From the NCBI GenBank assembly GCA_045111995.1, contig JBGUHI010000034.1, forward strand, positions 66,308 to 130,307: a stretch of DNA of 64,000 nucleotides. Reading direction: 5' to 3'. The position numbers and the translations under genes were made by a program. Shown here one piece after another: positions 3,232-61,774 of the stretch; the stretch's first letter is position 1, and the number at the start of each line of letters is the position of its first letter. The stretch is from Candidatus Limimorpha sp. Its GTDB lineage: Bacteria; Bacteroidota; Bacteroidia; Bacteroidales; F082. The notes beneath the pieces are model-generated. The model saw only the letters and a list, made by a program, of their open reading frames with translations, ran no database searches and was not told where the DNA came from.

Positions 3232-4539
3232 ATGAAGAAACTGATTTTTAATGCTTTAGTTTTTACAGCAGCGTTTTTCATCCCCATTCTTGGACTGGCG
3301 CAAGAGCCTTTGCAACTTACGCTTGACCAGGCCTTGGAGATTGCGCTTTCGGAGAGCAACACCATCAAAATCGCGGACATGACCGTGGAAAAGACAGGCT
3401 ATGCGCAAAAAGGCAGCTATGCCGCGCTTTATCCGAATGTGAGCATCAACGGCTCGTATCAGCGCACCTTGCAGAAGCAGGTGATGGTGATGGACATGGG
3501 CGGCCAGCCGATGGAAATCAAGGTGGGCCGCGACAACAACATCAGCACCTCGGCCTCGGCCAGTATGCCTTTGGTGAACGCCCCGCTTTGGGAGAGCCTG
3601 AAACTGTCGGGCATGGATGTGGAACTCGCTGTGGAACAAGCCCGTTCATCGAAAATTGGGATGATCAAGCAGGTGAAGCAGGCTTTCTATGCCGTGCTGC
3701 TCGCCCAAAAGTCACATGACATGATGTCGCAAGTCTATGAGAACGCCCAAAAGAACTACGAGAAGACCGAACAGCGTTTCAACGTGGGCAAGGCCTCCGA
3801 AGTGGAACGCCTGCGCGCACAAGTGACAATGATGAACGCCGAACCGAATGTTTCGAGCGCGGAAAACGCGGTTTTGCTGGCCACATGGCAGCTGAAAGCC
3901 GTCATGGGCATCGACCTCGGCACCGAAATCGAGGTGGTCGGCGACCTGAATGACTACACCAACGAAATGCTCGCGCCTTTCGCCTCAGAAGACAACCTCG
4001 ACGGCAACAGCACTCTGCAACAACTTGACATCCAGAGCCGTATGCTCGAATCGACCATTCGGATGCAGAAGAAACAATACCTGCCGACACTCGCCGCGAG
4101 CATCAACTACAACTACAGCGCGATGGGCGACGACCAACTGAGCTGGTTCCCTTCCTCGACCGCCGCCTTGAGCCTCACCGTCCCCGTTTTCGACGGTTTC
4201 CAGAAACGCTACAACATCAAGCAGAGCAAGGTGACCAAGAACATGCTCGAACTGCAACGCGAGGACACGGAACGCAACCTGCGCATCGCCATCCGCAACT
4301 ACAACGACCAGATGGCGCTGTGTGTGACGAACTTCAAAGCCGCCAACAAGACGGTGGAAGCCGCCGAGAAAAGCTACCAAATCTCGGAAAAGATGTACGA
4401 AGTCGGAAAGACAACCTTGGTTGAACTGAACGACGCGCAACTGGCTTTGCAACAGGCGCAACTCAACCAAGCCCAAGCCGTTTACAACTTCATCGTGGCC
4501 AAAGCCTCGTTGGATGAATTAATTGGAAAAGAAGAATAA
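3232..4539 (+). CDS. TolC-family outer-membrane efflux protein
   Basis: Signal peptide, then LTLDQALEIALSESNTIK and two OEP-type repeats. First gene of an efflux operon. Confidence 0.9.
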   Translation: MKKLIFNALVFTAAFFIPILGLAQEPLQLTLDQALEIALSESNTIKIADMTVEKTGYAQKGSYAALYPNVSINGSYQRTLQKQVMVMDMGGQPMEIKVGRDNNISTSASASMPLVNAPLWESLKLSGMDVELAVEQARSSKIGMIKQVKQAFYAVLLAQKSHDMMSQVYENAQKNYEKTEQRFNVGKASEVERLRAQVTMMNAEPNVSSAENAVLLATWQLKAVMGIDLGTEIEVVGDLNDYTNEMLAPFASEDNLDGNSTLQQLDIQSRMLESTIRMQKKQYLPTLAASINYNYSAMGDDQLSWFPSSTAALSLTVPVFDGFQKRYNIKQSKVTKNMLELQREDTERNLRIAIRNYNDQMALCVTNFKAANKTVEAAEKSYQISEKMYEVGKTTLVELNDAQLALQQAQLNQAQAVYNFIVAKASLDELIGKEE

Positions 4540-4542
4540 GGC

Positions 4543-4694
4543 TATCAGCTGTCAGCTATCAGCCATCAGCCATCAGCAGTCAGCTGTCAGCTGTCAGCTA
4601 TCAGCTGAGTTGTTGCAAGCTGAAAGCTGATTGCTAAAAGCTAAAAGCTAATTGCTGAAAGCTGATTGCTGAAAGCTAAAAGCTAAAAGCTAAA
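4543..4694. repeat. Two-armed inverted heptanucleotide array (9 x NNTCAGC, 12-nt spacer, 11 x WGCTRAW)
   Basis: 4543-4605 is 9 exact 7-nt units ending in TCAGC. 4618-4694 is 11 units of agctgaa/agctaaa/tgctgaa, i.e. the complement family. The innermost units pair tcagct/agctga. Confidence 0.95.
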
Positions 4695-4716
4695 TAAGAA
4701 AACAAACTACAAATCA

Positions 4717-5745
4717 ATGAAATACAACAGACTAACCCTCATCACTCTCGCCGCTGCCCTGCTGATGACGGCTTGCGGCTCGAAAGACAGCTCAACCACC
4801 ACGACGACCCAACCAGCCGCACAAACTGCGCCCGTGGTCAGCGTCGTCACGGCACAGACCGAAGACGTGGATGTCACCAACACTTTCACCTCCAACGTGG
4901 AGCCTTTTGTCACGAACAACATCGCATCGCAGACGGCAGGCCGCATCGCGAGCATCAACGTGGAAGTGGGCAGCAATGTCCGCAAAGGACAACTGTTGGC
5001 CCGCATGGACGACGTGAACCTCGCCAAGACGCGGATGCAGTACGTCAACGACTCGACGGAACTGGCGCGCCTCACCGAGCTTTACAACATCGGCGCCATC
5101 GCGCAATCGGACTACGACATGGCCCGGCTCGCTTTGAACGTAACGAAAAAGACCTACCAGAACTTGGCCGAGAACACCTACCTCCGCAGCCCCATCAACG
5201 GTGTGGTGACCGCCCGCAACTACGACAAGGGCGACATGTACAGCATGGCCCAGCCCATCTTCGTGGTCGAGCAAATCACGCCCGTGAAGATGTTGGTCAA
5301 CGTTTCCGAGAGCCTGTTCACGCAAGTCCACGAAGGCATGGAGTTCGACATCACCGTGGACGCCTACCCGAATGAGGTCTTCAAAGGCAAGGTGAACCTG
5401 CTCTACCCCACCATCAATGCGGCCACGCACACCTTCCCCGTCGAGGTCATTTGTGAGAACAAGGACCAGAGGCTGCGTCCCGGCATGTTTGCCCGCGTGA
5501 CGGCCAACTTCGGCACCAACCACCATGTCGTGGTCCCCGATGTCGCCGTAGTCAAGCAGCAAGGCTCGGGCGAGCATTTCATCTATGTGCTCAACGCCGA
5601 CAACACCGTGACTTACACAAAGGTGGAACTTGGTCGCCGCTTGGGCAGCCGATACGAAATCCTCTCCGGCATCAACGAGGGCGACAGGATTGTCACCGAG
5701 GGACAAGTTAGACTGAAGAATGGAGTAAGTGTAACTGTTAAATGA
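4717..5745 (+). CDS. Efflux RND transporter periplasmic adaptor (MFP/HlyD family) lipoprotein
   Basis: Lipobox LLMTAC, an alpha-hairpin/barrel-sandwich-like sequence, and a position between TolC and the RND pump. Confidence 0.9.
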   Translation: MKYNRLTLITLAAALLMTACGSKDSSTTTTTQPAAQTAPVVSVVTAQTEDVDVTNTFTSNVEPFVTNNIASQTAGRIASINVEVGSNVRKGQLLARMDDVNLAKTRMQYVNDSTELARLTELYNIGAIAQSDYDMARLALNVTKKTYQNLAENTYLRSPINGVVTARNYDKGDMYSMAQPIFVVEQITPVKMLVNVSESLFTQVHEGMEFDITVDAYPNEVFKGKVNLLYPTINAATHTFPVEVICENKDQRLRPGMFARVTANFGTNHHVVVPDVAVVKQQGSGEHFIYVLNADNTVTYTKVELGRRLGSRYEILSGINEGDRIVTEGQVRLKNGVSVTVK

Positions 5746-5754
5746 CACGCTTTG

Positions 5755-5827
5755 CGTCATTGCGAGGAACGAAGCAATCCAGACCAAGCGCTAATTTCTG
5801 GATTGCCGCGCTCCGCTCGCAATGACG
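5755..5827. repeat. Nested palindromic REP/MITE-like element
   Basis: The outer 12-bp perfect inverted repeat is cgtcattgcgag (5755-5766) / ctcgcaatgacg (5816-5827). The inner 10-bp inverted repeat is gcaatccaga (5774-5783) / tctggattgc (5797-5806). Confidence 0.85.
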
Positions 5828-5856
5828 ACACTAAATAGAAAAACGAACAATAGAAT

Positions 5857-8800
5857 ATGAGTCTACAACGAACATCAGTCAATAATCCGGTGACGACTGC
5901 CTTGATTTTCGTCGCCATCGCCATTTTCGGCATTTTCTCCCTGATGAAGCTCTCCATCAACCAGTTACCCAACATGGAGACCAACTTCATCATGGTGATG
6001 ACGTCCTATCCGGGAGCCAGTGCCGCCGATATTGAAACCAACATCTCCAAGACTTTGGAGAACACCCTGAATGCCGTCCCCGACCTGAAGCACCTTTCCT
6101 CCACTTCGCGTGAAAACACTTCGGTGCTTTCTTTGGAGTTTGAAAGCGGCATCGACATTGAAACTGCCACCAACAACGTGCGCGACAAAATCGACATCGT
6201 CAGGAACTACCTGCCCGACGGCGCGACCAACCCCGTGCTGTTCAAGTTCAACGCCGAGGACATGCCCATCATGCTCCTCAGCGTGACGGCAGAAGAAAGT
6301 TTGCCCGCTTTGGACAAGATCATCGAGGACCGCGTCACCACGCCTTTGGCGCGTGTGAGCGGCGTGGGCACGGTGTCGGCCAACGGTGCCCCGAAGCGCG
6401 AAATTCAAGTTTATGTGGATCCTAACAAACTGGAAGCCTACAACTTAACCCTTGAAAGCATCTCCAATACCTTGGCTACCGAAAACCGCAATGTGCCCGC
6501 CGGTTACATCGACATCGGCTCGAACAGTTACAGTTTGCGTATCCAAAAAGAGTTCACCTCGGCCAAGGAAATGGAAAACGTTATCGTCGGGTCACGCGGC
6601 ACCGCACCTATTTATTTGCGCGACGTGGCCACGGTTAGGGACGGTTCGGAGGAACGTATTCAGGAGTCGTACAGCAACGGTCGCCAAGGGGCCACCATCA
6701 TCATCCAAAAGCAGACCGACGCCAACGCCGTGAACGTCATCAAGGGCATCAAGAAACAGTTGAAAACCATCGAGCCGACACTGCCTTCCGACGTGAAACT
6801 GAACATCATCGTCGATGGCTCCACGTCCATCCAAAACACCATCAACAGCCTGCGCGACACCATCTTCATCACTTTCCTGTTGGTGATGTTGGTCGTGTTC
6901 GTGTTCCTCGGTCGTTGGCGCGCCACTTTCATCATCGTTTTGGCCATCCCGATTTCGCTGTTGGCTTCGTTGATTTACCTGTTTGCCACGGGCAACACGC
7001 TGAATATCATATCTATGTCGTCACTGACCATCGCCATCGGCATGGTCGTGGACGACGCCATTGTGGTGTTGGAAAACATCACCACGCACATCGAGCGAGG
7101 CTCGAAGCCCAAGGAGGCCGCCGTTCACGCCACCCAAGAGGTGCAGCTTTCGGTTATCGCATCCACTTTAACCATGTTGGCGGTGTTCCTGCCTTTGACC
7201 ATGATTAAAGGAACTACTGGCGTGATGTTCAAACAGTTGGGTTGGATTGTGTCCATCATTATGATTGTCTCCACCATTGGTGCACTGACATTGGTGCCGA
7301 TGATGTGCTCCAAAATGCTCGTGAAAAACCCACACGAAAGCAAGTTCCACAAGGCCATCTTCCGCCCCATCAACAAGGCTTTGGACACCATCAGCAACGG
7401 TTACGCCCGACTCATCAATTGGACCGTAAACCACCGTAAAGTGGTCATTTTCGGAATGTTAGCGCTTTTCATTTCGTCCGTTGCCTTCCTTGCCCCAACC
7501 TTGAAAACAGAAATGTTTCCGAAAATGGACGAAGGCCGCTTGAGCATCAACATCGAACTGCCGACGGGCACGGGACAAAACGTGACGGGTGCCCTTGCCA
7601 AGAGCCTTGCCGAGGACTTCATGGCCATCCCCGAAGTGAAGATTTGTAACTACAGTTTCGGCCAAGCCGACTCCGACAACGCCTTCGCCTCGATGCGAAA
7701 CAACGGAACGCACATCATGTCGTTCAACCTGCGCCTCGGCACCAAGACCGAGCGTCGAAAGGCGGGCTTGCGCAAGACCAGCGAAGTGGCCGACGAGATC
7801 CGCGCCAAACTCAACGCCATGCCTGAAATCAAGAAAGCCAACGTCAATGAAGGCGGTGGCGGCATGGGCGGCATGAGTACCGTTCAAGTGGAAGTTTACG
7901 GCTACGATTTTACCACCACCGACCGTGTGGCCAACGACATCGCACAAAAGCTTCGCGACCGTGGCATACTGCAAGTCATTGTGGGTCGCGACGAATACAC
8001 GCCTGAGTATCAGGTGGATTTCAACCGTGAAAAACTGGCCTTGAACGGTTTGAACAGCACCACGGCGGCCACTTACGTCAAGAACCGCATCAACGGCTCG
8101 GTGGGTTCATATTACCGCGAGGACGGCGAGGAGTACGACATCCGTGTGCGCTACGCTCCCGAGTTCCGCCAAAGCGTGGAAGACATCGAAAACATCAAGA
8201 TTTACAACAGTTACGGCCAACCCGTCCGGGTCGGCGACCTCGGCGAAGTGGTCGAATCGCTGACGCCACCTCAAATCCAGCGCAAAGACCGTGAACGCAT
8301 GGTCAGCGTCACCGCCGTCGTCGGCAAGGGCATGGTGCTGAGCGATGTGGTCAAGATTTGCGAGGAAGTCATCGCCGACACCGAAATCCCGTCCGAAATC
8401 ATGACCAAAATCGCCGGCGACTACGAGACCCAAAAAGAGATGTTCGGCGACCTGATCACTTTGCTCGTCCTCATCATCATCTTGGTTTACATTGTGATGT
8501 CCTCGCAGTTCGAGAATCTGATGAAGCCTTTCGTCATTATGTTTTCCGTGCCGTTCACCTTCACCGGTGTGTTGCTCGGCCTGTGGGCCACTAACACCGC
8601 CTTGGGCGCGATGGCTTTTGTCGGCATCCTGATCCTGATGGGTATCGTCGTGAAAAACGGTATCGTACTCATCGACTACACCACCCTGCTCGAAGAGCGC
8701 GGTGTGGAAGTCAAGGAAGCCACCGTGAAAGCCGCCCGCTCGCGTCTGCGCCCCATTTTGATGACTACACTGACGACAGTCTTGGGTATGATTCCCATGG

Positions 8801-8991
8801 CCATCGGTCGCGGCGAAGGCGCTGAGATGTGGAACTCCTTGGGCATCACCGTGGCCTGGGGCTTGACGGTTTCGACCTTGATTACCTTGTTGCTCATTCC
8901 GGCATTGTATTGTTCGTTGGAGACCAGAGCGGTGCGCAGAAAGAGAAGAAAAGCAGAGGAAGCTTTGACGAAGACTGAAAATATTAGATAG
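5857..8991 (+). CDS. Efflux RND transporter permease (AcrB/HAE1-like)
   Basis: 1044 aa with a 12-TM architecture and two large periplasmic loops. Typical AcrB-family blocks are present (VVDDAIVVLENI, GIVVKNGIVLIDY). Confidence 0.95.
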   Translation: MSLQRTSVNNPVTTALIFVAIAIFGIFSLMKLSINQLPNMETNFIMVMTSYPGASAADIETNISKTLENTLNAVPDLKHLSSTSRENTSVLSLEFESGIDIETATNNVRDKIDIVRNYLPDGATNPVLFKFNAEDMPIMLLSVTAEESLPALDKIIEDRVTTPLARVSGVGTVSANGAPKREIQVYVDPNKLEAYNLTLESISNTLATENRNVPAGYIDIGSNSYSLRIQKEFTSAKEMENVIVGSRGTAPIYLRDVATVRDGSEERIQESYSNGRQGATIIIQKQTDANAVNVIKGIKKQLKTIEPTLPSDVKLNIIVDGSTSIQNTINSLRDTIFITFLLVMLVVFVFLGRWRATFIIVLAIPISLLASLIYLFATGNTLNIISMSSLTIAIGMVVDDAIVVLENITTHIERGSKPKEAAVHATQEVQLSVIASTLTMLAVFLPLTMIKGTTGVMFKQLGWIVSIIMIVSTIGALTLVPMMCSKMLVKNPHESKFHKAIFRPINKALDTISNGYARLINWTVNHRKVVIFGMLALFISSVAFLAPTLKTEMFPKMDEGRLSINIELPTGTGQNVTGALAKSLAEDFMAIPEVKICNYSFGQADSDNAFASMRNNGTHIMSFNLRLGTKTERRKAGLRKTSEVADEIRAKLNAMPEIKKANVNEGGGGMGGMSTVQVEVYGYDFTTTDRVANDIAQKLRDRGILQVIVGRDEYTPEYQVDFNREKLALNGLNSTTAATYVKNRINGSVGSYYREDGEEYDIRVRYAPEFRQSVEDIENIKIYNSYGQPVRVGDLGEVVESLTPPQIQRKDRERMVSVTAVVGKGMVLSDVVKICEEVIADTEIPSEIMTKIAGDYETQKEMFGDLITLLVLIIILVYIVMSSQFENLMKPFVIMFSVPFTFTGVLLGLWATNTALGAMAFVGILILMGIVVKNGIVLIDYTTLLEERGVEVKEATVKAARSRLRPILMTTLTTVLGMIPMAIGRGEGAEMWNSLGITVAWGLTVSTLITLLLIPALYCSLETRAVRRKRRKAEEALTKTENIR

Positions 8992-8997
8992 TTATTT

Positions 8998-9041
8998 GGC
9001 TGTTAGCCGTTAGCTATTAGCTATTAGCACGGCTGACAGCC
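8998..9041. repeat. Heptamer array (AGCYRTT units) with a local hairpin, 6 nt after the RND pump stop
   Basis: The sequence reads ggctgtt agccgtt agctatt agctatt agcacgg. ggctgttagcc (8998-9008) pairs with ggctgacagcc (9031-9041) with one G-U position. Confidence 0.9.
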
Positions 9042-9064
9042 AAATTATATGCATAGAAGTTTAT

Positions 9065-9415
9065 ATGAGAGATTTTCACAATTATAAGGTTTGGAATAAA
9101 GGGCATCAATTTGCCTTGAACATTTACAAAAAGACCAAATCTTTTCCGAAAGAAGAGTTGTTTGGGATTACCTCTCAACTTAGGCGAGCGGCAACTTCCA
9201 TTCCATTTAATATTGCCGAAGGATGTGGACGAAGAAGCGATGCTGAATTTGCTCATTTCCTGAACATTGCGGCTGGGTCTGCTTCTGAAGTCGAAGAAGA
9301 ACTTCTTTTGTCATACGACTTAGAGTATATGGATAAAGCCTCATATATTCAACTTAATGATGAGGTGAACGACATAAAAGCAATGCTAAACAAACTTATA
9401 GAAACCTTACATTAA
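9065..9415 (+). CDS. Four-helix-bundle protein (23S rRNA intervening-sequence protein / Avd-like family)
   Basis: The sequence FHNYKVWNKGHQFALNIYKKTKSFPKEELFGITSQLRRAATSIPFNIAEGCGRRSDAEFAHFLNIAAGSASEVEEEL matches the hallmark motifs of this family (SQ(L/I)RRAA.S...NIAEG, G S..E). Confidence 0.85.
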   Translation: MRDFHNYKVWNKGHQFALNIYKKTKSFPKEELFGITSQLRRAATSIPFNIAEGCGRRSDAEFAHFLNIAAGSASEVEEELLLSYDLEYMDKASYIQLNDEVNDIKAMLNKLIETLH

Positions 9416-9444
9416 AGCAATCAACCTAACACTACGTAAAATCA

Positions 9445-9479
9445 AGCTAATTGCTAACTGCTAATAGCTAACAGCTTAA
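9445..9479. repeat. Heptamer array (WGCTAAY units), inverted relative to 8998-9030
   Basis: The sequence reads agctaat tgctaac tgctaat agctaac agcttaa. gctaatagctaac (9460-9472) is the exact reverse complement of gttagctattagc (9009-9021). Confidence 0.9.
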
Positions 9480-9490
9480 AAATCACAAAC

Positions 9491-9784
9491 ATGAAATCCA
9501 TCCTAATCACCTACAACCAAGCCTACTACGACGAAATCGCCAAAGTGCTCAACGACAACGGAGTCAAGGGCTTCACCGAGTGGAACGAAATCAAAGGCCA
9601 CGGCAGCGAGACTGGCGAGCCGCACTACGGCACCCACGCCTGGCCTACCTTGAACAACGCCATCGTCAGCATCGTCCCCGACGAGGCCGTCGAAGGCATC
9701 CTGAAGCAACTGAAAGAGAAAGACCGCAAAGCCCCCGAGTTGGGGCTTCGGGCGTTTTACTGGACGGTGGAGGGGATGATTTAG
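9491..9784 (+). CDS. Small P-II-like transporter-associated protein (resembles the PG0541-type gene that trails RND operons in Bacteroidales)
   Basis: 97 aa with a beta-alpha-beta-like pattern (ILITYNQAYYDEIAKVLNDNGVKGFTEW..IKGHG). It is the last gene of the TolC-MFP-RND operon. The family name is recalled from memory, not searched. Confidence 0.5.
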   Translation: MKSILITYNQAYYDEIAKVLNDNGVKGFTEWNEIKGHGSETGEPHYGTHAWPTLNNAIVSIVPDEAVEGILKQLKEKDRKAPELGLRAFYWTVEGMI

Positions 9785-9786
9785 GG

Positions 9787-11166
9787 TTACTTCGACAGAA
9801 TCCGCTCCATCTGCGAAAGGGCAAACAAAGGACAAATCAGCACATGGCGGATAGCGTTGGAATCCTCGGGGGCGGAATAATCGAAAAATCCGAAATTCTC
9901 CAAAGAACACCTGACGGCCTTGTCAAGTTTCTTTTCGCGCATAAAGATCCAAAGGCTTTTCATGCCGCCTTGTGTTCCAGCCTTAACCTCGATAGGCAAA
10001 ACATTTGATTTGTCGTTGGTGACGTAGTCCACTTCGGCCAAAGAATTCTTGGATTGCCGAAGCCAATAATACATCTCGTGACGAATATTGGGAGTCTGAT
10101 AATGAAGCATTTCCAATCCTGCCACCATCTCTGCCATAGGGCCTTTGTTGACCAAATCGGCAACATCATCAGTAAGGATTTGTGTAGTCAGTTCCGAAAT
10201 GTCACCCATTGTCATGTTCAACAGGCGAAGCATCAGACCTGAGTCGAGTAGCAGCATCTTTCGGTAGGAATAGTTTGCCTCGCTGCCAAGCGGAAGCCCA
10301 TTGGCATTCGTGTGCGTGACCGGGACGACAATACCCGCTCGAATCAACAGTTCCAAGGCTTTCTTGACTTCGATGCCCTTATATTCGCCACCCACTTGCG
10401 AATAGACGAACTTCTTTGTGGCTTGCTCGGCCACACTGCGCATCGTCAGGCGTAGCAATACAGGATCTACTTTCTTCTTGTATTTCGGGAAATCGTCTTC
10501 GTAAGTCACGACAATGTCGTCCTGTACCTCTTGGCAGGCCAAATAGTCATGAGTTTCAACCCATTTGCCAACGGCTTCTGGCATCCCTCCAACGAGCATA
10601 TAAGTCCGCAAAAGCGCAACCAGTTTCAGGTACAATGGCTCTGGCAACGGTCGCTCCGATGTCGCTTGATTCCGTGCATCCATAAGTAATTGTTCGCCAT
10701 TGGCAACAAGAAACTCGTCGAAAGTCATCGGATACATATACATGGAATGGATGCGCCCAACGCCGAAAGTAGGCAGTTCCTCAAGAGCAAACTCCAACAA
10801 TGATCCAGCGGCTACAACGTGCAGGTCGGGCATGTCTTCCTTGAAAAACCGTAAGGCCATGATTGCTTCAGGACAGGCCTGAATTTCATCAAGAAAAAGG
10901 AGCGTTTTTCCAGCTTCTATTGGCTTTCCAGCAATCGCAGCCATTTGAGGCACAATTCTTTCCACATCAATATCGGCTTGAAACAACTGCTTGTATATTG
11001 GCTGTTTCTCAAAGTTGACCTCCACGAAATTCCCAAAGCGTTCAGCCAGATGATGAACCGCAGAAGATTTGCCCACTTGCCGAGCGCCGCGAAGCAACAA
11101 CGGCTTGTGTGAAGCGCGTGAAGCCCATTCCACCAAATACTTGTCAATCATTCTTGGATAATACAT
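9787..11166 (-). CDS. AAA+ ATPase with C-terminal DUF4143-type domain
   Basis: Walker A (LLLRGARQVGKSS) and Walker B (LLFLDEIQ). The size and C-terminal layout are typical of stand-alone AAA/DUF4143 proteins. Confidence 0.8.
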   Translation of the reverse strand: MYYPRMIDKYLVEWASRASHKPLLLRGARQVGKSSAVHHLAERFGNFVEVNFEKQPIYKQLFQADIDVERIVPQMAAIAGKPIEAGKTLLFLDEIQACPEAIMALRFFKEDMPDLHVVAAGSLLEFALEELPTFGVGRIHSMYMYPMTFDEFLVANGEQLLMDARNQATSERPLPEPLYLKLVALLRTYMLVGGMPEAVGKWVETHDYLACQEVQDDIVVTYEDDFPKYKKKVDPVLLRLTMRSVAEQATKKFVYSQVGGEYKGIEVKKALELLIRAGIVVPVTHTNANGLPLGSEANYSYRKMLLLDSGLMLRLLNMTMGDISELTTQILTDDVADLVNKGPMAEMVAGLEMLHYQTPNIRHEMYYWLRQSKNSLAEVDYVTNDKSNVLPIEVKAGTQGGMKSLWIFMREKKLDKAVRCSLENFGFFDYSAPEDSNAIRHVLICPLFALSQMERILSK

Positions 11167-11186
11167 GATTTCAATGTTTTACGCGG

Positions 11187-11194
11187 CAAAAATA
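11187..11194 (-). promoter_or_regulatory. Bacteroidota -7 box for the AAA+ ATPase gene
   Basis: 'caaaaata' on the + strand equals TATTTTTG on the - strand, 20 nt upstream of the ATG at 11166. Confidence 0.45.
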
Positions 11195-11200
11195 CAAAAA

Positions 11201-11248
11201 CTGCAAAAATCCAAATATATAAATCATCAATTTCTGCAAAAATCCAAA
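11201..11248. repeat. 15-bp perfect direct repeat (ctgcaaaaatccaaa) x2, period 33 nt
   Basis: Copies at 11201-11215 and 11234-11248, just upstream of the ATPase promoter box. Confidence 0.9.
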
Positions 11249-11294
11249 CAAATAATTTTGAAAAAAGCACAATTTTCCAAAGAAAAACTCTTTT

Positions 11295-11507
11295 TTAACC
11301 ACCTACATTCCACCTATAAGTCAACGCCCCCGAAAGGCATTTCTCAATTTGCGCAATCAGTTCGGCGGTGGTGGCGTTCTCAGGCTTGACCCAAGGCCGT
11401 GCCGATGGGTTATAGACTTTCGGAAGCAAGTACGTACAAGCACCTGCATGAATGCAAAGTTCAGGCTTCCAAATGATTGTGATTTCTCCGTTGGTGTATT
11501 CTTTCAT
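11295..11507 (-). CDS. Small (4Fe-4S)-binding-like protein (divergent mono-cluster domain, DUF1271-like)
   Basis: 70 aa. The block ITIIWKPELCIHAGACTYLLPKVYNP...WVKPENAT is typical of this small domain, which is usually fused to acetyltransferases. It starts 10 nt after the helicase stop. Confidence 0.55.
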   Translation of the reverse strand: MKEYTNGEITIIWKPELCIHAGACTYLLPKVYNPSARPWVKPENATTAELIAQIEKCLSGALTYRWNVGG

Positions 11508-11517
11508 GGTAGATGTA

Positions 11518-14500
11518 TTATAGTTTCTTTTTCAGCAACAATTCTGGCAGCAATACAGCCGTTTCTTCCGATTCGCCTTTACCTCTCCATGCCACAATAT
11601 AGTTCACCTTGGCAGATTGAACTTGATAGCCTTTTTCCGCCCAACCATCTAGTTCGTTGCGCTTTTGAATGGACAAAGACGCAATCTTTTCCCCCGATGG
11701 CAATCGCAAATAACCTTGATCAAATGACAACGGCATACCACTACGGCATTGCAGAATCAACTTCTTCTTGCCCTTGAAGAAATCCAGATACACATCACGA
11801 TGCGTCAGTTGCAAAGTGATTTCGTCAGGCATCAGATACATATTTACATCATATTGATAATCAACAAAATCAAATTTCATCGACTCAAATATGCTGGTGT
11901 TACAATGGATGTAAAGATTCTGTTTTGCCCGCGTCATTCCCACATACAACTTGCGGATTCTCTCCTCCGAATCGGCCTGTTCGCCGTCCAACAACATATA
12001 TACGGAATCAAACTCGCGCCCTTTGGACTTGTGGATGGTGGAAACGAGGACGGTTTGCCTTGTGTCGCCACAAAAATCTTCAAAATTCGACTCATAGACA
12101 AAGTCGGCCAAGTCGCTGCTATATTTGTCTCGTGGATTGGTGCGTTCAAAAACCTTGAAAAACTCTTTGATGTATTCAAGACAAGTGCTTGTTCGATAAC
12201 ACATTAGAGTTTTTTCCTTGGCCTGTTCCCAATGTTCCTCACTGATGACGGGTGATTCCAATCCATCGTCAATGAGTTTAAGGAAATAGCGCACTTCAGC
12301 CAAGTTGAAAAACCGGAACCCATCAACGGACTGAATCAATCTCGCATTGATGCCGTGACGAATCAGAAGCCCAGTAACACGCGCAGCCTCCTCATTGGTG
12401 TTGGTCAGCACACAGGCCTGCTCTTGATGATAAGTGGCAAGCAATTGATTGACCAAAGGAATTTCCAAGTTTTCAGATTGATACTGCGTGATTTGCACCT
12501 TACCAACCTCTTTTGGGACAGCAACATTGGGCAATGTCTTCATCCGATGTCTGCTTCTTTGGATGAACTGGTTCGAGAAAGCCACAAGTGCCTTTTGGCT
12601 ACGGTAATTCTCTGTCATCTCATACTTTGCGGCCTGCATCTCGTCAATGAAGGCTTGCATGTATCGGCTGTCGGAGCCACGGAATTGATAAATGTTTTGG
12701 TCGTCGTCGCCCACAGCAATCACGCGCATCTCCTCGTTGTTTTTCATCAAGGCGCGAACAAGGGCGTATTCGTCTTTGTCCATGTCTTGCGCCTCGTCGA
12801 TGACAAGGACGGCTTTGTTAATACGACCTTGCTCGGCCTCACCGCGTTCAATCATTTCGGCAGCGCGACGAACCACATCCTCGGATTCTTCAAGGTTGCC
12901 GATTTTGCCCAATAGATCGAAACTGAAGGCATGGAAAGTCTTGATTTCCACGAAACTCGCAGCATTGCCAATAAGGTCGATGAGCCGTTGCTTGAACTCC
13001 GTGGCGGCTGCCCGCGAGAATGTCAGCATCAGCAGTTGCTCGTGCTTGACATCCTCCATCAACAGCAAAGAAGCCAATTTGTGAACCAAAACCCTCGTCT
13101 TGCCACTTCCGGGACCCGCAGCCACAACGATGTATTTGGATTGCTTGTCGTCGATGATTTCCCGCTGTTTGGCCGAAAGCGTCCCAAATAGTTTCCGATA
13201 CTTGTCGGGAGTAATATTTCGCTCGATTTCCTCCAACCGTTCTCCTTTGAAGTATTTGGAAACGAACTTCTTATAGTCCATTTGGAAATAATCCTGAACA
13301 TATTGCAAGGCCGCACCATAATCCCTCACCATCATGTTGGCATACTCGCCCACGATATGAATCTGCTGGCGTTTTTGCTTGTAGAACTCATCCAACATCC
13401 GATAGTCTTCCTGCTTGTACCGAAATTTCATGTCTTTTAGGCGATGGACTTCCATAGCGTTGTAAATCACCAAGAAACCACCTTCCAACTTCAATGCTCC
13501 AATTTTTGACAAGTAAAGCAAGGCGTCTTCAATGTCCTCAATGGTGAACATCTCCGATTTCTGGAACAAATTGGTTTTCTGCTGGTTGTCATATTCCTTC
13601 AGCAAGGATGTCACGGAAAACTGCACCAAACTTCCCGAAGATTCAGGCGACAACGGCTTTTGTAAAGCCAAGGCGTGAAGCCTTTCGATAATGAAACGGC
13701 AAATGCCGATCCGACGCTCATATTTCCGCAGAGTTTGGTCAAGGTCATGGCACAACACAGCCTGTACCATGTCATTACGAACATTCTCCCTCTTTTTGAT
13801 ATACGATTTGACCGAAAGGAAATACAGTAAGGTCTTGATGTTCTTGATGGAAGTGCGGATGCCGTTTTCCGTGGCTTTTTCGTTCAGGGCTTTATAAGAG
13901 AAAGCCGTTTCCTCCTTGGCCATTGTCGTAAGAAGGAACTGCTCCAACTTGACAAATTGCTCAAAAACTTGTTTCGATTTGTTTTCGGAATGTTCGATAT
14001 AGGCGGACATGTCTTGCGAGTCAGCCAAGATGCCTTCTTGACGCATTAGGTTCACCGCATTGATGACCGATTCCTTGGTCATGCCGAGCATGTCAGCAAG
14101 ATAGTCCACACGCGATTCGGCATCATTATCCGTCGCCATTGCCCTACTCTTGCTGGAAATCAGCGACTTGATAATGCGGACGGCGTTTTGCTTTTCTTGC
14201 TCGTCAATGAACAGCGGAGAAGCCACAATGCGTTTATGCGCTTCGTCCATGTTTCTCACCATGATTCCCGTGGCGAAAACATGCAGAACATTGTTGCCCC
14301 GACTGACATAGCCTGCTTCTTCGAGTGCGGCAATGGCTGTGCGTACACGGGTTTCGATGGCCGAAACCTCTTCGTTCCAACCTGCCTGCCGGGCAATTTC
14401 CAAAGAGGAACAACAAACATATTTGCGTTGCTTCGTCAAATCCTTTACGGCTTTCCAAACTTGCTGTATCTCGCTGATGCTCAACTTGGTCTGATTTAGC

Positions 14501-16392
14501 AGGATAAAATGCTTGTCCAAATCGTGATCGCTGTAGAGCACATAGCATTTGGCATCGGTTTGTGGGTCACGACCGGCACGACCCGCCTCTTGCACATAGT
14601 TTTCAAGCGAATCGGAAATGTCGTAATGAATGACCAATCCGACATCCTTCTTGTCCACGCCCATACCGAAAGCCGAAGTGGCCACCATGGCTTGCACTTT
14701 GTTGGCAATGAAGTCGTTTTGGTTGGCAATCTTGTCGTTGGAATCCATTTTCCCGTGGAAAGGCAATGCCGAGATGCCGTCCCTACTCAATTTTTGGGAC
14801 AACTCCATGGATTTGCGTGTGCGCGAAACATAAATGATGGTCGGACACGGGTTGCCCAACATCAGGCTACGCAATAGGTTGTACTTGTCTTCTTCCGTTT
14901 CGGCGTAAATGACTGAATAATGCAGGTTTTTCCTTGCAGAAGCCGAGGCAAACAGTTTCAAATCCACGCCCAATTTCCGCTTGAAATAATCGGAAATGTC
15001 AGTAATGACTTTCTGTTTCGCAGTCGCAGTGAAACACGAAACTGGGATTGGCGAAGTCATGCCTTTTTGCTCCTGCAATTTGCGGATGAAGTCGCCAATG
15101 TATAGATAATCAACTCGGAAATCCTGTCCCCATGAAGAAAAACAATGCGCCTCGTCGATGACGAAACGCACCACATTCCGCGACAGCAACAGTTTTTCGA
15201 TGGTTTTGGAACGCAGCATTTCAGGCGCAATATACAGCAAGGTTGCACTACCATTGGCCACCCGCTCAAAGGCTTCGGCGCGGTTGATAGGGTCAAGCAG
15301 TCCATTAATGGTAACGGCCTCGGTGATGCCTTGCTCGGCGAGGTTATCAACTTGGTCTTTCATCAGCGATTGCAATGGCGAGACGACCACTGTCAATCCA
15401 TGCACGGCACGACCTGACATGATGGCCGGCAGTTGGAAAGTCAAGGATTTTCCGCCGCCTGTTGGGAAAATGGTCAGCAGCGACTCTCCATCAACGGCGG
15501 CTTGAACTGCCCGTTCTTGCATGGGTTCTCCGTCGAAAGTGCGAAACTCCTTGAATCCGAACACGTTCTCCAAACCTTTGTGTATGTCCAACTTACTTTG
15601 GCAATAGTCGCAATGCGCATTATGGCAAGGCGTGTTGCAAAGCAGAACAAGCACGTTTTCAATAAATGGGAAATTGCGCAACAACCAAGGTGGCGTAATC
15701 GATGCGCCATCGTCAGTGGAAATCAACGCCAAAGCGTAGGCCAGCTCAATCGGATGCTCCCGAATCAACGAATCGACAGGGCTATATTCGCAGATTTTTC
15801 CTTGAAACGTTTGAAAGACAAGGGTTTCCAAGTCTTGCGTATCGGCACTGAAATTCAGATAGTTGAAAAATCCTACGAACTCCTCAATGCCATGAAGCAA
15901 ACCATAAAAAATGGCCTTCATCTCATTGGAGAGTGCTTCAAAAGCGTTCACTTCGTCATAAAACAAGGAACGGGATTTCAAGCAATCATTAAGCGGATTA
16001 TTGACCTCATCGGTTTGCAACTTGTCATCTTTCAACAGTTTATGGTAAGGCCGTTTCGGAAACAACAGCGGAGAAAGATAGAGCGTATCGATGGCTTTTT
16101 TTTCTTTAATCTCCACAATGTCAGCCAAGTATTTCAAATCATGGTGAATGATGTTGTGACCGCACAAAAACTCGGCATCGGCAACAAATTGGGCAAAACC
16201 TTGTTTCGAGGCGGAATGAAATTCCTCGCCTGATTCCTTGACGGCACCAAAATCATGCGCTTTTTTGTCCTGCAATCCTATCTCGACATCAATGAACACT
16301 ACACCCGACAATGGTCTTCGATTGGTGAACAAGCCATTCCTTAGTCGGTTGATATAGTCGTTGATGATTGGCATTTCACCCTCCAATCTCAT
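11518..16392 (-). CDS. Fusion protein: DnaQ-like 3'-5' exonuclease + RecQ-family helicase + UvrD/PcrA-family helicase
   Basis: - Exonuclease, N-terminal: VVFIDVE (Exo I) and CGHNIIHHDLKYL (Exo II).
- RecQ core: TIFPTGGGKSLTFQLPA, VVSPLQSLMKDQV, VIDEAHCFSSWGQDFR, ATSAFGMGVDKKDV, QEAGRAGRD.
- UvrD core: VVAAGPGSGKTRVLV, LMLTFSRAAATEF, VLVIDEAQDM, VGDDDQNIYQFRG, TENYRS, STIHKSKGREFD, LYVGMTRAK.
- An alternative start, MPIINDY, lies at 16374. Confidence 0.9.
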   Translation of the reverse strand: MRLEGEMPIINDYINRLRNGLFTNRRPLSGVVFIDVEIGLQDKKAHDFGAVKESGEEFHSASKQGFAQFVADAEFLCGHNIIHHDLKYLADIVEIKEKKAIDTLYLSPLLFPKRPYHKLLKDDKLQTDEVNNPLNDCLKSRSLFYDEVNAFEALSNEMKAIFYGLLHGIEEFVGFFNYLNFSADTQDLETLVFQTFQGKICEYSPVDSLIREHPIELAYALALISTDDGASITPPWLLRNFPFIENVLVLLCNTPCHNAHCDYCQSKLDIHKGLENVFGFKEFRTFDGEPMQERAVQAAVDGESLLTIFPTGGGKSLTFQLPAIMSGRAVHGLTVVVSPLQSLMKDQVDNLAEQGITEAVTINGLLDPINRAEAFERVANGSATLLYIAPEMLRSKTIEKLLLSRNVVRFVIDEAHCFSSWGQDFRVDYLYIGDFIRKLQEQKGMTSPIPVSCFTATAKQKVITDISDYFKRKLGVDLKLFASASARKNLHYSVIYAETEEDKYNLLRSLMLGNPCPTIIYVSRTRKSMELSQKLSRDGISALPFHGKMDSNDKIANQNDFIANKVQAMVATSAFGMGVDKKDVGLVIHYDISDSLENYVQEAGRAGRDPQTDAKCYVLYSDHDLDKHFILLNQTKLSISEIQQVWKAVKDLTKQRKYVCCSSLEIARQAGWNEEVSAIETRVRTAIAALEEAGYVSRGNNVLHVFATGIMVRNMDEAHKRIVASPLFIDEQEKQNAVRIIKSLISSKSRAMATDNDAESRVDYLADMLGMTKESVINAVNLMRQEGILADSQDMSAYIEHSENKSKQVFEQFVKLEQFLLTTMAKEETAFSYKALNEKATENGIRTSIKNIKTLLYFLSVKSYIKKRENVRNDMVQAVLCHDLDQTLRKYERRIGICRFIIERLHALALQKPLSPESSGSLVQFSVTSLLKEYDNQQKTNLFQKSEMFTIEDIEDALLYLSKIGALKLEGGFLVIYNAMEVHRLKDMKFRYKQEDYRMLDEFYKQKRQQIHIVGEYANMMVRDYGAALQYVQDYFQMDYKKFVSKYFKGERLEEIERNITPDKYRKLFGTLSAKQREIIDDKQSKYIVVAAGPGSGKTRVLVHKLASLLLMEDVKHEQLLMLTFSRAAATEFKQRLIDLIGNAASFVEIKTFHAFSFDLLGKIGNLEESEDVVRRAAEMIERGEAEQGRINKAVLVIDEAQDMDKDEYALVRALMKNNEEMRVIAVGDDDQNIYQFRGSDSRYMQAFIDEMQAAKYEMTENYRSQKALVAFSNQFIQRSRHRMKTLPNVAVPKEVGKVQITQYQSENLEIPLVNQLLATYHQEQACVLTNTNEEAARVTGLLIRHGINARLIQSVDGFRFFNLAEVRYFLKLIDDGLESPVISEEHWEQAKEKTLMCYRTSTCLEYIKEFFKVFERTNPRDKYSSDLADFVYESNFEDFCGDTRQTVLVSTIHKSKGREFDSVYMLLDGEQADSEERIRKLYVGMTRAKQNLYIHCNTSIFESMKFDFVDYQYDVNMYLMPDEITLQLTHRDVYLDFFKGKKKLILQCRSGMPLSFDQGYLRLPSGEKIASLSIQKRNELDGWAEKGYQVQSAKVNYIVAWRGKGESEETAVLLPELLLKKKL

Positions 16393-31617: not shown

Positions 31618-31626
31618 ATCAATAGC

Positions 31627-31845
31627 TATCAGCTGTCAGCTGTCAGCAATCAGCTGTCAGCCATCAGCAATCAGCTGTCAGCCATCAGCAATCAGCTGTC
31701 AGCAATCAGCAATCAGCTGTCAGCAATCAGCAATCAGCAATCAGCAATCAGCTGTCAGCAATCAGCAATCAGCTGTCAGCTGTCAGCAATCAGCAGTCAG
31801 TAGTCAGCTGTCAGCCTCGGTTCAAACAAGCTGAGAGCTGAAAGC
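31627..31845. repeat. 27 tandem NNTCAGC heptamers (31627-31815) plus a short inverted arm agctgag agctgaa agc (31829-31845)
   Basis: Counted unit by unit. The units are tatcagc, tgtcagc, aatcagc, catcagc, agtcagc and one agtcagt. The phase never slips over 189 nt. Confidence 0.97.
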
Positions 31846-31861
31846 CCAAAAACAAAACACC

Positions 31862-38556: not shown

Positions 38557-38612
38557 GGATTTCAGATTTCAAGATTTAAAATTCAAGATTTTAGAGTTTC
38601 GGATTTCAAATC
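38557..38612. repeat. Degenerate heptamer array (RGATTTC-like, ~8 units) spanning the CPA2 stop / topB start junction
   Basis: The sequence reads ggatttc agatttc aagattt aaaattc aagattt tagagtt tcggatt tcaaatc. It overlaps the last ~10 codons of the 38583 gene. Confidence 0.7.
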
Positions 38613-52500: not shown

Positions 52501-53809
52501 TTGTTAACACTCCACTCAAACCAGTTCCAGCAAAGGCATAGTCTCCAATGGTAACCACAGAACTTGGAATGTTGAAATTCCCTGTTATTCCCGACAAATC
52601 CCTAAACGCTCCATTGGGAATAACCTGTACACCTTCGCCAATCTGAAGCGAAGTGATATTGCTGCAGCCAGAAAACGCAGACGTAAAATAACAATATGGA
52701 TCATCAGTATAGTATTGACCATTGCCATAATAGTAATCAAAGCTATTAGTATCATTTCGATAATACCCAATTGCGGTACAATTAGTGGCATTAAAAACAA
52801 TGCCTGTCAATCCCAAACAGTTGGCGAATGCGTTTTGGCCAATCGAAGTGATGTTGGTTCCTATGGTTAGACTCCCAGTAAGGCTGCAATCTTGAAAAGC
52901 GCCTTCGCCGATTGAAGTGAGCGAATTTGGTAGGGGCAGAGTACCCGTAAAACCAGTATTGGCAAAAGCATATTCGCCAATCGTGGTAACGGAATTGGGA
53001 ATATTCAACGCTCCTGTCAAGCCGGAGCAACCATTAAAAGCATATCCGCCAATTGTAGTAACAGAACTGGGTATTACCAATGTTCCGCTCAAGCTGGAAT
53101 GGCCGTCGAATGCCTTATAAGGAATGGTTTGCACATTGTTTCCGATGTTCAATGTGGTCAATGGACAGTTCGCGAAGACCCCGACATCCCATCCATAATA
53201 ATAATAAAAAATTCCCATCGTACAGTTGGTAGCATTGAAGTTCAAGGTTGTGAAACCATTATTGGCAAACGCATAACATCCAATAGAAGCAACCGATTCG
53301 GGAATGGTCAATGTACCGCTAAAACCAGCACCCCAAAACATATAGTTAGGGATAACCTGGACTCCTTCTCCAATATTCAGATTGGTCAAGCTAGAACAAT
53401 CAGTAAATATAGAGTTTTGAGAACTAAGAGTACAGTTTATTGCGTTGTAGTTTACCGTGGTAAAGTTAGCCCCTTGAAAAGGCAAATAACCTGTAGATGA
53501 AATGGTACTGGGAATGGTCACTGATAGATTTAGGCCATTAGGATTATAATCATAAAACGCACTCTCACCGATACAATTCACGGTATAAGAAGTGCCATTA
53601 TCAGACACGCTTTCAGGAATGTCAACATCCAAATCATATTCCACATAACCGACTACGGTTACCGAAACTCCGTCGTCGTTAACGGAGTAGTTCAAGTTGC
53701 CCACCGTAAAGTTCTGGGCGTGTGCATTCTTCATTCCCGCCACACTCAGCAGCAGGACGAACAAGGCGGCACTCGTCGCCTTCCCGAATCGTAAAATTCT
53801 TTCTTTCAT
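49541..53809 (-). CDS. BspA-like leucine-rich-repeat surface protein, T9SS-sorted (1422 aa)
   Basis: About 30 LRR_5-type units (IPxSVTSIGxxAFxxCxxLT). Two copies of the HW...DECRGS module follow. The C-terminus has a T9SS tail (YPNPVNANGLVRINMP...KGVYVMKVAIDGKGIYTCKLIVE). Confidence 0.9.
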   Translation of the reverse strand: MKERILRFGKATSAALFVLLLSVAGMKNAHAQNFTVGNLNYSVNDDGVSVTVVGYVEYDLDVDIPESVSDNGTSYTVNCIGESAFYDYNPNGLNLSVTIPSTISSTGYLPFQGANFTTVNYNAINCTLSSQNSIFTDCSSLTNLNIGEGVQVIPNYMFWGAGFSGTLTIPESVASIGCYAFANNGFTTLNFNATNCTMGIFYYYYGWDVGVFANCPLTTLNIGNNVQTIPYKAFDGHSSLSGTLVIPSSVTTIGGYAFNGCSGLTGALNIPNSVTTIGEYAFANTGFTGTLPLPNSLTSIGEGAFQDCSLTGSLTIGTNITSIGQNAFANCLGLTGIVFNATNCTAIGYYRNDTNSFDYYYGNGQYYTDDPYCYFTSAFSGCSNITSLQIGEGVQVIPNGAFRDLSGITGNFNIPSSVVTIGDYAFAGTGLSGVLTIPENVTSVGLKAFANTGVTAINFNATDCSTIGYLYWLNSGYNELEFISAFYGCSNIESLQIGENVQQIPTGAFKDLQGISGALNLPNSVETIGDYSFDNIGATGTLVIPESVTSIGSYAFSNNGFTTLNFNATNCTAMGTGWLWSNGTDIPVSTFYNCNNLTTLNLGSEVQTIPDYAFVSCNTLEGSLTLPNSLQSIGMRSFYGCSGFTGELVIPNLVDTIDSQAFRNCTGFSGTLTIGTNVSAVSGNAFMNTGFTTMNYNATNCTIGGSVWNDYYGYQFAPNSFTGMPSLTTLNIGNNVESISDIAFKDCSTLTGNLILPNSLTSIGDQAFYNCSGLEGIVMGNSVETIGNEAFRNCGGIRGELTLPATLLSVGNHAFASCDEITTVNYNATSCTQMGDAQHPVFFDCASLAHINIGDNVLSIPNYAFKRCSTVEDMTVAVAVPPTIGASTFATVSRSIPVIVPFGSGDDYRNAAYWQEFFNITEGYGPTPNSNHWQPNPHQSAFNMTVIGIIQIGGVEQTVGTLEIGAFCNDECRGSQILTYYPPIDRYLLFFTLYGEHNDQLTFRLYDHATSQESLLVCTEVMTFVPDNIVGSYQDPHVFNFVSIQNSILSQGWNWHSSYVELGTGSLDMMTNSLGESGLMIKSQSNGFTTYDAGEWFGTLTTVNNESTYLINTSADCVMSVAGSFVTPDQHPITLSNGWNWIGYPSTNALDLNTALGGLAAQDGDMIKNQDNFSVYIAGMGWVGSFNTIYPGTGLMYNSSATGNTSFVYANGGRCLDEIPSMTDNHWMANRQAYPYNMSVMAVVCLDENELGGDAELAAFDGDECRGSARLLYVEHLDRYVAFLTVTGEEAATLTLKLYDHETGMEYENPNSSLNFEVDGIVGSLANPFIVDFSTTTETDEPFANGLAAYPNPVNANGLVRINMPYESEARVEIVNALGAMVSAENVTGSSSAIKAPATKGVYVMKVAIDGKGIYTCKLIVE

Positions 53810-61680: not shown

Positions 61681-61714
61681 GCTGAATTAAATCGCCCTTT
61701 CAGGGCTTCCCTCC

Positions 61715-61770
61715 CACCTCCTAACTTCACACCTCATACCTCATACCTCAAACTTCACACCTCATACCTC
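61715..61770. repeat. 8 tandem heptamers (A[CTA]AC[CT]TC family) immediately 3' of the rarA stop
   Basis: The sequence reads cacctcc taacttc acacctc atacctc atacctc aaacttc acacctc atacctc, in exact 7-nt phase. Confidence 0.9.
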
Positions 61771-61774
61771 CCAA

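Follow-up and report, generated by a model that had tools for sequence, protein, structure and literature searches.

The window analyzed here, a 64,000-nucleotide (nt) stretch of DNA from Candidatus Limimorpha sp. (GenBank assembly GCA_045111995.1, contig JBGUHI010000034.1, positions 66,308 to 130,307 of the forward strand), contains an efflux operon in which a small gene for a four-helix-bundle protein of the PF05635 family is bracketed by two inverted arrays of heptamers. Gene and arrays together make up a 499-nt cassette on the + strand (8992 to 9490) that, judged by the same junction in relatives, is an insertion placed exactly in the 2- to 3-nt spacer between the stop codon of one host gene and the start codon of the next. 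The architecture of the cassette, as far as it can be read from the sequence, matches that of the intervening sequences (IVSs) of ribosomal RNA (rRNA) that bear an open reading frame (ORF), and its two arms are of matching type in nearly all cassettes compared. We think it probable that the cassette is a small selfish element that is read through from the operon and whose arm duplex is cut by RNase III.

The cassette and its junction

Relatives of the operon were collected by searching metagenomes with the PG0541-family protein encoded downstream of the cassette, which gave 80 related loci in which that protein is 80 to 95% identical; junction states were scored in the 67 of these loci with both flanks usable. 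The junction is empty at 46 of the 67, where the stop codon of the pump gene is followed by 2 to 3 nt (GCC, CC, or GCT) and then by the ATG of the next gene, and it is occupied at 19 by an insert of 360 to 593 nt carrying the four-helix-bundle ORF. As empty sites hold only 2 to 3 nt and occupied sites 360 to 593 nt, the whole interval from the pump stop codon (TAG, 8989 to 8991) to the ATG at 9491 is inserted DNA, and the original prediction of an inserted cassette bounded at its repeats is borne out by the aligned operons. The same empty sites rule out that the arrays were already present in the host junction before the insertion. The two remaining loci carry scars. In L112, a scar of 38 nt (2463 to 2500) consists of the left array fused to an A-rich tail, and in L154, a scar of 18 nt (2483 to 2500) retains the A-rich tail alone. 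The ORF of a 360-nt cassette copy in L141 (2141 to 2500) is degraded. These three loci fit decay stages of the cassette and are consistent with hairpin-mediated deletion. In the window, the tail is taaaaatcacaaac (9477 to 9490, + strand); it is missing at empty sites and kept in both scars, and these last 14 nt of the cassette now serve as the leader of the PG0541-family gene. No target-site duplication is seen on comparing occupied with empty junctions, and no transposase or integrase was found; the sole ORF of the cassette is the PF05635 gene. An insertion sequence or a miniature inverted-repeat transposable element was rejected on these two grounds, despite the presence of inverted termini.

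Homologs that are 91 to 92% identical in protein are found in rumen-type Bacteroidales metagenome-assembled genomes in two contexts. The first is the same RND/PG0541 junction (L002 to L005). The second lies between the genes for PhoU_div and NAPRTase (L006 to L017 and L178 to L182), where the gene is 92% identical and has the same flanks. Both contexts contain a left array within a GGCTGT...ACAGCC hairpin and an inverted right array. When RND-site and PhoU-site cassettes are aligned, similarity extends from TGGCTGTTAGC (~8997) to the last right-hand unit (~9476), which is nearly what had been proposed from the window alone as the limits of the element (8998 to 9479).

The left (5′) array (8999 to 9029, + strand) is made up of about four NN-TTAGC units. 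It is detected by Tandem Repeats Finder (TRF; period 7, 4.3 copies) and by pattern search, and extraction by regular expression gives the units TGTTAGC, CGTTAGC, TATTAGC, and TATTAGC. The right (3′) array (9445 to 9476, + strand) is made up of about four GCTAA-NN units that are inverted relative to the left (TRF period 7, 4.6 copies), and it is also supported by inverted-repeat searches and by the covariation described below. Read directly from the sequence, the left heptamers at 9002 to 9029 are gttagcc, gttagct, attagct, and attagca, the right heptamers at 9445 to 9472 are agctaat, tgctaac, tgctaat, and agctaac, and the 13-mer gttagctattagc (9009 to 9021) is the exact reverse complement of gctaatagctaac (9460 to 9472). 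The original prediction had given these heptamers letter for letter and the 13-mer pair at these coordinates. A repeat search finds inverted arms at 8992 to 9028 and 9446 to 9482 (37 nt, 78%) and an inverted core at 9012 to 9029 and 9459 to 9476 (18 nt, 94%). In addition, the left array is enclosed by a local hairpin (8994 to 9045, + strand), the stem of which is a 17-nt, 94% inverted repeat (8994 to 9010 with 9029 to 9045). There are six matches to TTAGCNRTTAGC in the 64-kb window, all within the two cassette arrays, compared with 0.03 expected, and together with cross-locus and intergenic controls this rules out a chance origin of the repeats.

In composition, the cassette stands apart from its host operon. 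Its GC content is 0.315 to 0.435 in 200-nt windows and the flanks have 0.51 to 0.60, or overall ~0.38 and 0.55 to 0.58, respectively, so that the impression of an ORF more AT-rich than the operon around it holds when counted. There is no Rfam match at 8992 to 9490 and no Rfam rRNA match in 4400 to 9900. A scan limited to sigma-70-type signals, with Bacteroidota promoters outside its coverage, gave no convincing promoter or terminator in the cassette.

The cassette gene (9065 to 9415, + strand) is intact and encodes a protein of 116 amino acids. This protein matches PF05635 at 135.1 bits (cutoff 33.8; E 1.3e-39), with residues 6 to 110 aligned to positions 2 to 106 of the 106-position profile, and TIGR02436 at 135.9 bits (cutoff 24); no other PF05635 ORF is present in the window. 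Its closest solved relative is XCC0516 (PDB 2GSC; E 1.5e-18, residues 6 to 112), followed by a second solved homolog, 2RLD (E 2e-09), and each of the two entries contains five chains. The gene upstream encodes an AcrB-family RND pump (5857 to 8991, + strand; PF00873, E 6.5e-255) and the gene downstream encodes the PG0541-family transporter-associated protein, which is P-II-like (9491 to 9784, + strand; NF045581, E 6.8e-31; PF00543, E 7.2e-07). The profile matches of all three genes thus confirm the earlier placement of the 116-residue protein between an RND pump and a small P-II-like gene. The four-helix-bundle protein has no match among PADLOC defence models or among recognised families of nucleases, transposases, and recombinases. 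Comparison of the ORF with its ortholog in L003 gives a dN of 0.05, a dS of 0.65, and a dN/dS of 0.08, with synonymous sites saturated in most other pairs, which shows strong purifying selection on a functional gene.

PF05635 is a family that resembles Avd, the accessory protein of diversity-generating retroelements (DGRs), and the cassette protein gives a weak match to the Avd model. That the gene is the Avd gene of a DGR, or a remnant of one, is nevertheless very improbable. The match to the NF033474 equivalog reaches 16.5 bits compared with a cutoff of 80, the indel comprises a single gene between two host genes, and no reverse transcriptase is found among the called neighbours in any context read or by a crude motif scan of the window.

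Complementarity and predicted pairing of the two arms

Three classes of cassette share the one RND/PG0541 site. Cassettes with TTAGC on the left and GCTAA on the right are found in the window, L003, L103, and L164, with proteins 87 to 91% identical to that of the window. The class with TCAGC on the left and GCTGA on the right (L099, L101, L127, and L148) has proteins 74 to 80% identical to it, and the class with TAAGC and GCTTA (L118, L120, L124, and L167) has proteins 76 to 79% identical. In 23 of 24 cassettes, the core type on the left is matched by that on the right. Fourteen cassettes have four units in each arm, giving a 28-bp stem in which 88% of cells are paired and six pairs have changed on both sides. 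The four core positions of these 14 cassettes alternate between C:G, A:U, and U:A, the signal collapses when the register is slid, and the covariation score was reached by none of 500 shuffles. Across 108 dereplicated cassettes, the complementarity of an arm to its own partner has a median of 14, as opposed to 7 with the arms of other elements (p 7e-25).

All RNA structures discussed here are predictions. Of 75 cassettes, 64% are predicted to form a long-range stem between the arms at a mean probability above 0.5, with values of 0.85 to 0.88 in the orthologs L003 and L005, and the arm-arm duplex of the window copy has a predicted energy of −40.1 kcal/mol. In many cassettes, one of the arms forms a local hairpin with an additional, third array (in the upstream flank of L019 and L101, and in the downstream flank of L006 and L148). 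This array precedes the ORF in some cassettes and directly precedes the right arm in others, beside a conserved loop motif, CGTNCAAANCAAGCT. In the folding models, a choice between local and long-range pairing seems to be characteristic of these cassettes.

The explanation that we favor begins with transcription of the cassette by read-through from its host operon. The two arms would then pair into a duplex of ~20 to 30 bp that loops out the gene, and by analogy with rRNA intervening sequences, in which excision occurs at the RNA level, it is plausible that RNase III cuts this duplex. Such a cut would free the cassette transcript from the host cistrons, and the operon would thereby tolerate the insertion. 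At the level of DNA, the same inverted arrays would drive both array expansion and hairpin-mediated deletion, with the latter giving rise to scars.

Several observations weigh against this explanation. The covariation rests on just three related lineages, and conversion or concerted evolution between the arms could produce the same covariation without selection for pairing. Mismatches within the arms are G·T in 60 cases and A·C in 62, so there is no excess of the wobble expected of sense RNA, and the pairing constraint is therefore not assignable to sense RNA; it may instead act in the DNA, through iterated binding sites, a cruciform or hairpin, or conversion from arm to arm. In the window copy, the left array is held in the local hairpin described above, which has a predicted energy of −33.2 kcal/mol and dominates the ensemble. 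The predicted probability of array-array pairing there is ~0.006, and forcing the long-range form costs ~10.6 kcal/mol. The right array of this copy pairs weakly with 8975 to 8995 (predicted probability 0.65), and the local hairpin is also kept in L003, L103, L164, and the PhoU-site cassettes. The geometry first proposed, an ORF in the loop of a long-range stem, accordingly stands for the inverted arms and for the majority of cassettes folded, but not for the preferred fold of the window copy. Finally, among the homologs examined, the subfamily at ≥74% identity is found at the RND/PG0541 and PhoU_div/NAPRTase junctions only, and frequent transposition is thus not supported; by this count, moves to other sites are rare.

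Distribution, turnover, and putative derivative arrays

Relatives beyond this subfamily were sampled as a diverse set, which takes one genome per species and the best 80 loci, with the protein 47 to 78% identical and two conserved peptide motifs required; gene calls in the relative loci are simple ORF calls. The set spans Bacteroidota, Acidobacteriota, Chloroflexota, Planctomycetota, Verrucomicrobiota, Desulfobacterota, Poribacteria, and other phyla. When the two 150-nt flanks of the gene are compared, their best inverted repeat reaches a z of at least 4 in ~50 of 79 loci, measured against shuffles that keep mononucleotide content only, and involves heptamers such as AGCTGTCAGCGATCAGC; L040 has a perfect 30-nt inverted pair. 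Period-7 arrays number 76 within 150 nt of the gene, compared with ~60 in the remaining ~413 kb. Counted by gaps, such an array is present in 47 of the 110 gaps adjoining the gene (43%) and in 19 of 192 other intergenic gaps (9.9%), an odds ratio of 6.8 (p 9e-11). Their polarity is fixed, with TNAGC preferred upstream (132 against 11) and GCTNA downstream (76 against 19), and runs most often contain four units. Of 74 loci, 57 have the gene pointing the same way as both of its neighbours and 9 have it antisense to both; the gaps to these neighbours have medians of 64 nt upstream and 45 nt downstream. In 28 of the 32 loci that could be evaluated, the left array begins no more than ~13 nt past the stop codon of the upstream gene. 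The cassettes of these many phyla form a family that lives mostly within operons in the sense orientation. With this family and the second operon junction in close relatives, the suggestion that such cassettes can colonise mRNA intercistronic regions finds support. In four of the 80 diverse loci (L030, L067, L077, and L088), another four-helix-bundle gene, or a piece of one, lies no more than 2 kb away, which suggests local clustering or tandem insertion.

At the RND/PG0541 site, the states of the junction are scattered over a host-flank tree, which is rough and built on 711 nt. The four states (empty and the three cassette classes) require no fewer than 17 changes across the 67 taxa, and among the nearest neighbours of the window on this tree are an empty site as well as cassettes of the TCAGC and TAAGC classes. 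This scatter shows that the site turns over, and the turnover could reflect either repeated site-specific insertion or an old polymorphism spread by homologous recombination. Synonymous divergence (pS) is 0.27 to 0.64 in the host flanks and 0.68 to 0.94 in the cassette, except for 0.44 against L003, the cassette of which is a true ortholog of the one in the window.

It is possible, if rather doubtful, that the arrays act on DNA instead. They would then be terminal inverted repeats of iterated binding sites (a T-AGC core and two variable bases, usually in four units), bound by the pentameric protein or by an unlinked recombinase in order to move, home, or maintain the cassette, and ORF-less arrays would be non-autonomous copies; such an element would have its parallels in REPIN/RAYT systems or free-standing homing endonuclease genes. 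This is consistent with the conserved core, the variable spacers, and the mode of four units per arm, as well as with the five chains in each entry of the solved homologs and the lack of G·U bias in the arms. The strong purifying selection on the protein of a dispensable cassette, the scattered states on the host-flank tree, and the divergence of the cassette in excess of its flanks also fit, and the family is further found at several rRNA insertion sites in bacteria of the candidate phyla radiation, beside homing endonuclease genes. On the other hand, the protein matched no recognised nuclease, transposase, or recombinase family, there is no visible target-site duplication, and the close subfamily was found at only two sites. 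No protein residue significantly tracks the repeat core type among ~25 semi-independent representatives, and core type switches inside one protein cluster (≥65% identity). The sense bias within operons is, in addition, not needed by an element that works purely at the DNA level.

Two further loci in the window have inverted heptamer arrays and no ORF. The first (31620 to 31846, + strand) lies between the PhoU_div and NAPRTase genes and consists of 27 NN-TCAGC units (TRF, 31620 to 31815) and a short inverted array; its loop motif, cggttcaaacaagctga, resembles the motif just before the right array of the cassettes. Given the cassette found at that junction in relatives, it looks like an expanded derivative that has no ORF. 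The second (4541 to 4694, + strand) fills the gap between the genes for the TolC-like protein and the membrane fusion protein of the same efflux operon with 9.4 copies of GCTATCA in forward and 11 copies of AAGCTRA in inverted orientation. It is predicted to fold as one 150-nt hairpin of −72.6 kcal/mol with a z of −6.6. An Rfam search on the ORF-less array returned only a chance match to a miRNA model, at 25.9 bits compared with the 119 needed. From their units and positions, both loci look like decayed or expanded cassette derivatives. The period-7 arrays of these two loci and of the cassette (8999 to 9028 and 9445 to 9476 by TRF) are all tandem and intergenic, and their copy number varies among relatives. 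Further period-7 arrays with unrelated units are present at 61710 to 61782 and 38558 to 38608 (CCTCATA-like and GATTTCA-like).

The stability of these hairpins raises the question of whether the arrays are of benefit to the host as RNA elements. They could act as stabilisers, attenuators, or processing hairpins, with the protein binding single-stranded repeats, as TRAP does on triplet repeats, and thereby tuning both itself and the downstream gene. The predicted hairpins of the ORF-less arrays are very stable and stand at other operon junctions in the window, the leader of the downstream gene comes from the cassette, alternative local and long-range pairings are predicted, and the DGR relative Avd acts within an RNA-handling complex. 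We regard a host benefit as improbable, because roughly two in three close relatives lack the cassette and have kept a coupled junction of 2 to 3 nt, and because its ready loss is evident from the scars. There is likewise no functional link between the two carrier operons, one for efflux and the other with phosphate and NAD genes, and no wobble signature of RNA.

A broader proposal can be put forward tentatively. The four-helix-bundle proteins may be the trans-acting factor of a widespread, hitherto unrecognised class of bacterial selfish elements that end in inverted heptamer arrays. The IVSs of rRNA would be the special rRNA case of this class, and its non-autonomous derivatives would include the ORF-less arrays seen in Bacteroidota, Cyanobacteria, Xanthomonas, and other bacteria. 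A pentameric ring of the protein might bind four to five units for homing, maintenance, or RNA processing.

Just past the operon, the − strand at 9787 to 16392 encodes an AAA_14/DUF4143 ATPase that matches the PADLOC candidate PDC-S01 (E 1e-137), a small Fer4_19 protein, and a 1624-residue helicase that combines DpdF-like with UvrD-like parts. The genes at that place differ in relatives and include ResIII/SWI2_SNF2 restriction-like, AAA_15/21, and DUF1508 genes. By its gene content, this flank looks like a variable defence island. Elsewhere in the window, Tandem Repeats Finder reports a 72-nt unit in 1.9 copies with 77% match (52964 to 53098).

Comparison with known systems

Free-standing homing endonuclease genes, known from "intronless homing," are small single genes that are present or absent at an exact intergenic position between conserved genes. 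The cassette has the same presence/absence polymorphism and is likewise more divergent than its flanks, but no nuclease domain is recognised in its protein. REPIN/RAYT systems (REPtrons) consist of hairpin-forming inverted repeat doublets scattered between genes and a single-copy gene flanked by the same repeats, and RAYTs are HUH/Y1 transposases. The cassette protein is without an HUH/Y1 domain, and its repeats are tandem heptamer arrays and not single palindromes. With Avd, the protein shares a fold superfamily whose free-standing homologs, 2GSC and 2RLD, have five chains per entry. It falls below the equivalog cutoff, however, and the single-gene indel has no linked reverse transcriptase or template and variable repeats.

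Long heptanucleotide arrays have been described from intergenic regions of Bacteroidetes and Cyanobacteria (PMC4679880), and Xanthomonas has 70 to 75 pairs of arrays in convergent orientation (PMC4692102). The cassette arrays are similar to the cyanobacterial short tandemly repeated repetitive (STRR) sequences, long simple sequence repeats, TAACTGA repeats, and Xanthomonas GGGAATC arrays in being tandem, intergenic 7-nt units of variable number. They differ in that they come and go with a gene at a defined site, and the papers on the other arrays draw no link to four-helix-bundle proteins. Several studies report such intergenic arrays without an agreed origin or function, and cassettes of the present kind are a candidate origin for them. 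The PF05635 family itself is already known from rRNA intervening sequences and as the Avd of DGRs, and a 2024 preprint still describes it as functionally uncharacterised. In a literature search that covered few subscription journals, no paper was found to connect free-standing PF05635 genes with inverted heptamer arrays, nor any account of such cassettes as presence/absence insertions at operon junctions. The family has thousands of members and no known function outside DGR Avd, and its free-standing genes are now tied to a defined DNA architecture that recurs from locus to locus and to individual operon junctions that are polymorphic for presence or absence of the gene. There is also a consequence for annotation, as the cassettes split translationally coupled gene pairs and give the downstream gene a new leader.

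The closest likeness proposed at the outset, to ORF-bearing rRNA intervening sequences, is a real one, as the ORF, stem, and heptamers of the Coxiella burnetii IVS make clear. That IVS carries an ORF of the PF05635 family, a terminal stem of 28 bp, and tandem heptamers of variable number within 428 to 444 nt, and RNase III cleaves it at the first repeat (PMC4990558). More generally, the ORF-bearing IVSs of 23S rRNA (Leptospira, Coxiella burnetii, and the Xanthomonas/Brucella type with an S23p ORF) resemble the cassette in having a promoter-less ORF of the same family in sense orientation, terminal inverted repeats that could pair as a stem of ~28 bp around it, and 5′ tandem heptamers of variable copy number; at 499 nt, the cassette is also of a size similar to the Coxiella IVS. 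It differs in its location, which is between the stop and start codons of a protein-coding operon and not in helix 25 or 45 of 23S rRNA, and in its ORF, which is intact and under purifying selection, whereas that of the Coxiella IVS is decaying and probably untranslated. Both arms of the cassette are heptamer arrays with a T-AGC core, and the RNase III cleavage known for the Coxiella IVS would apply here by analogy. An IVS-type element living in mRNA operons is thus what appears to be new, and rRNA intervening sequences may accordingly be recast as one habitat of a broader element.

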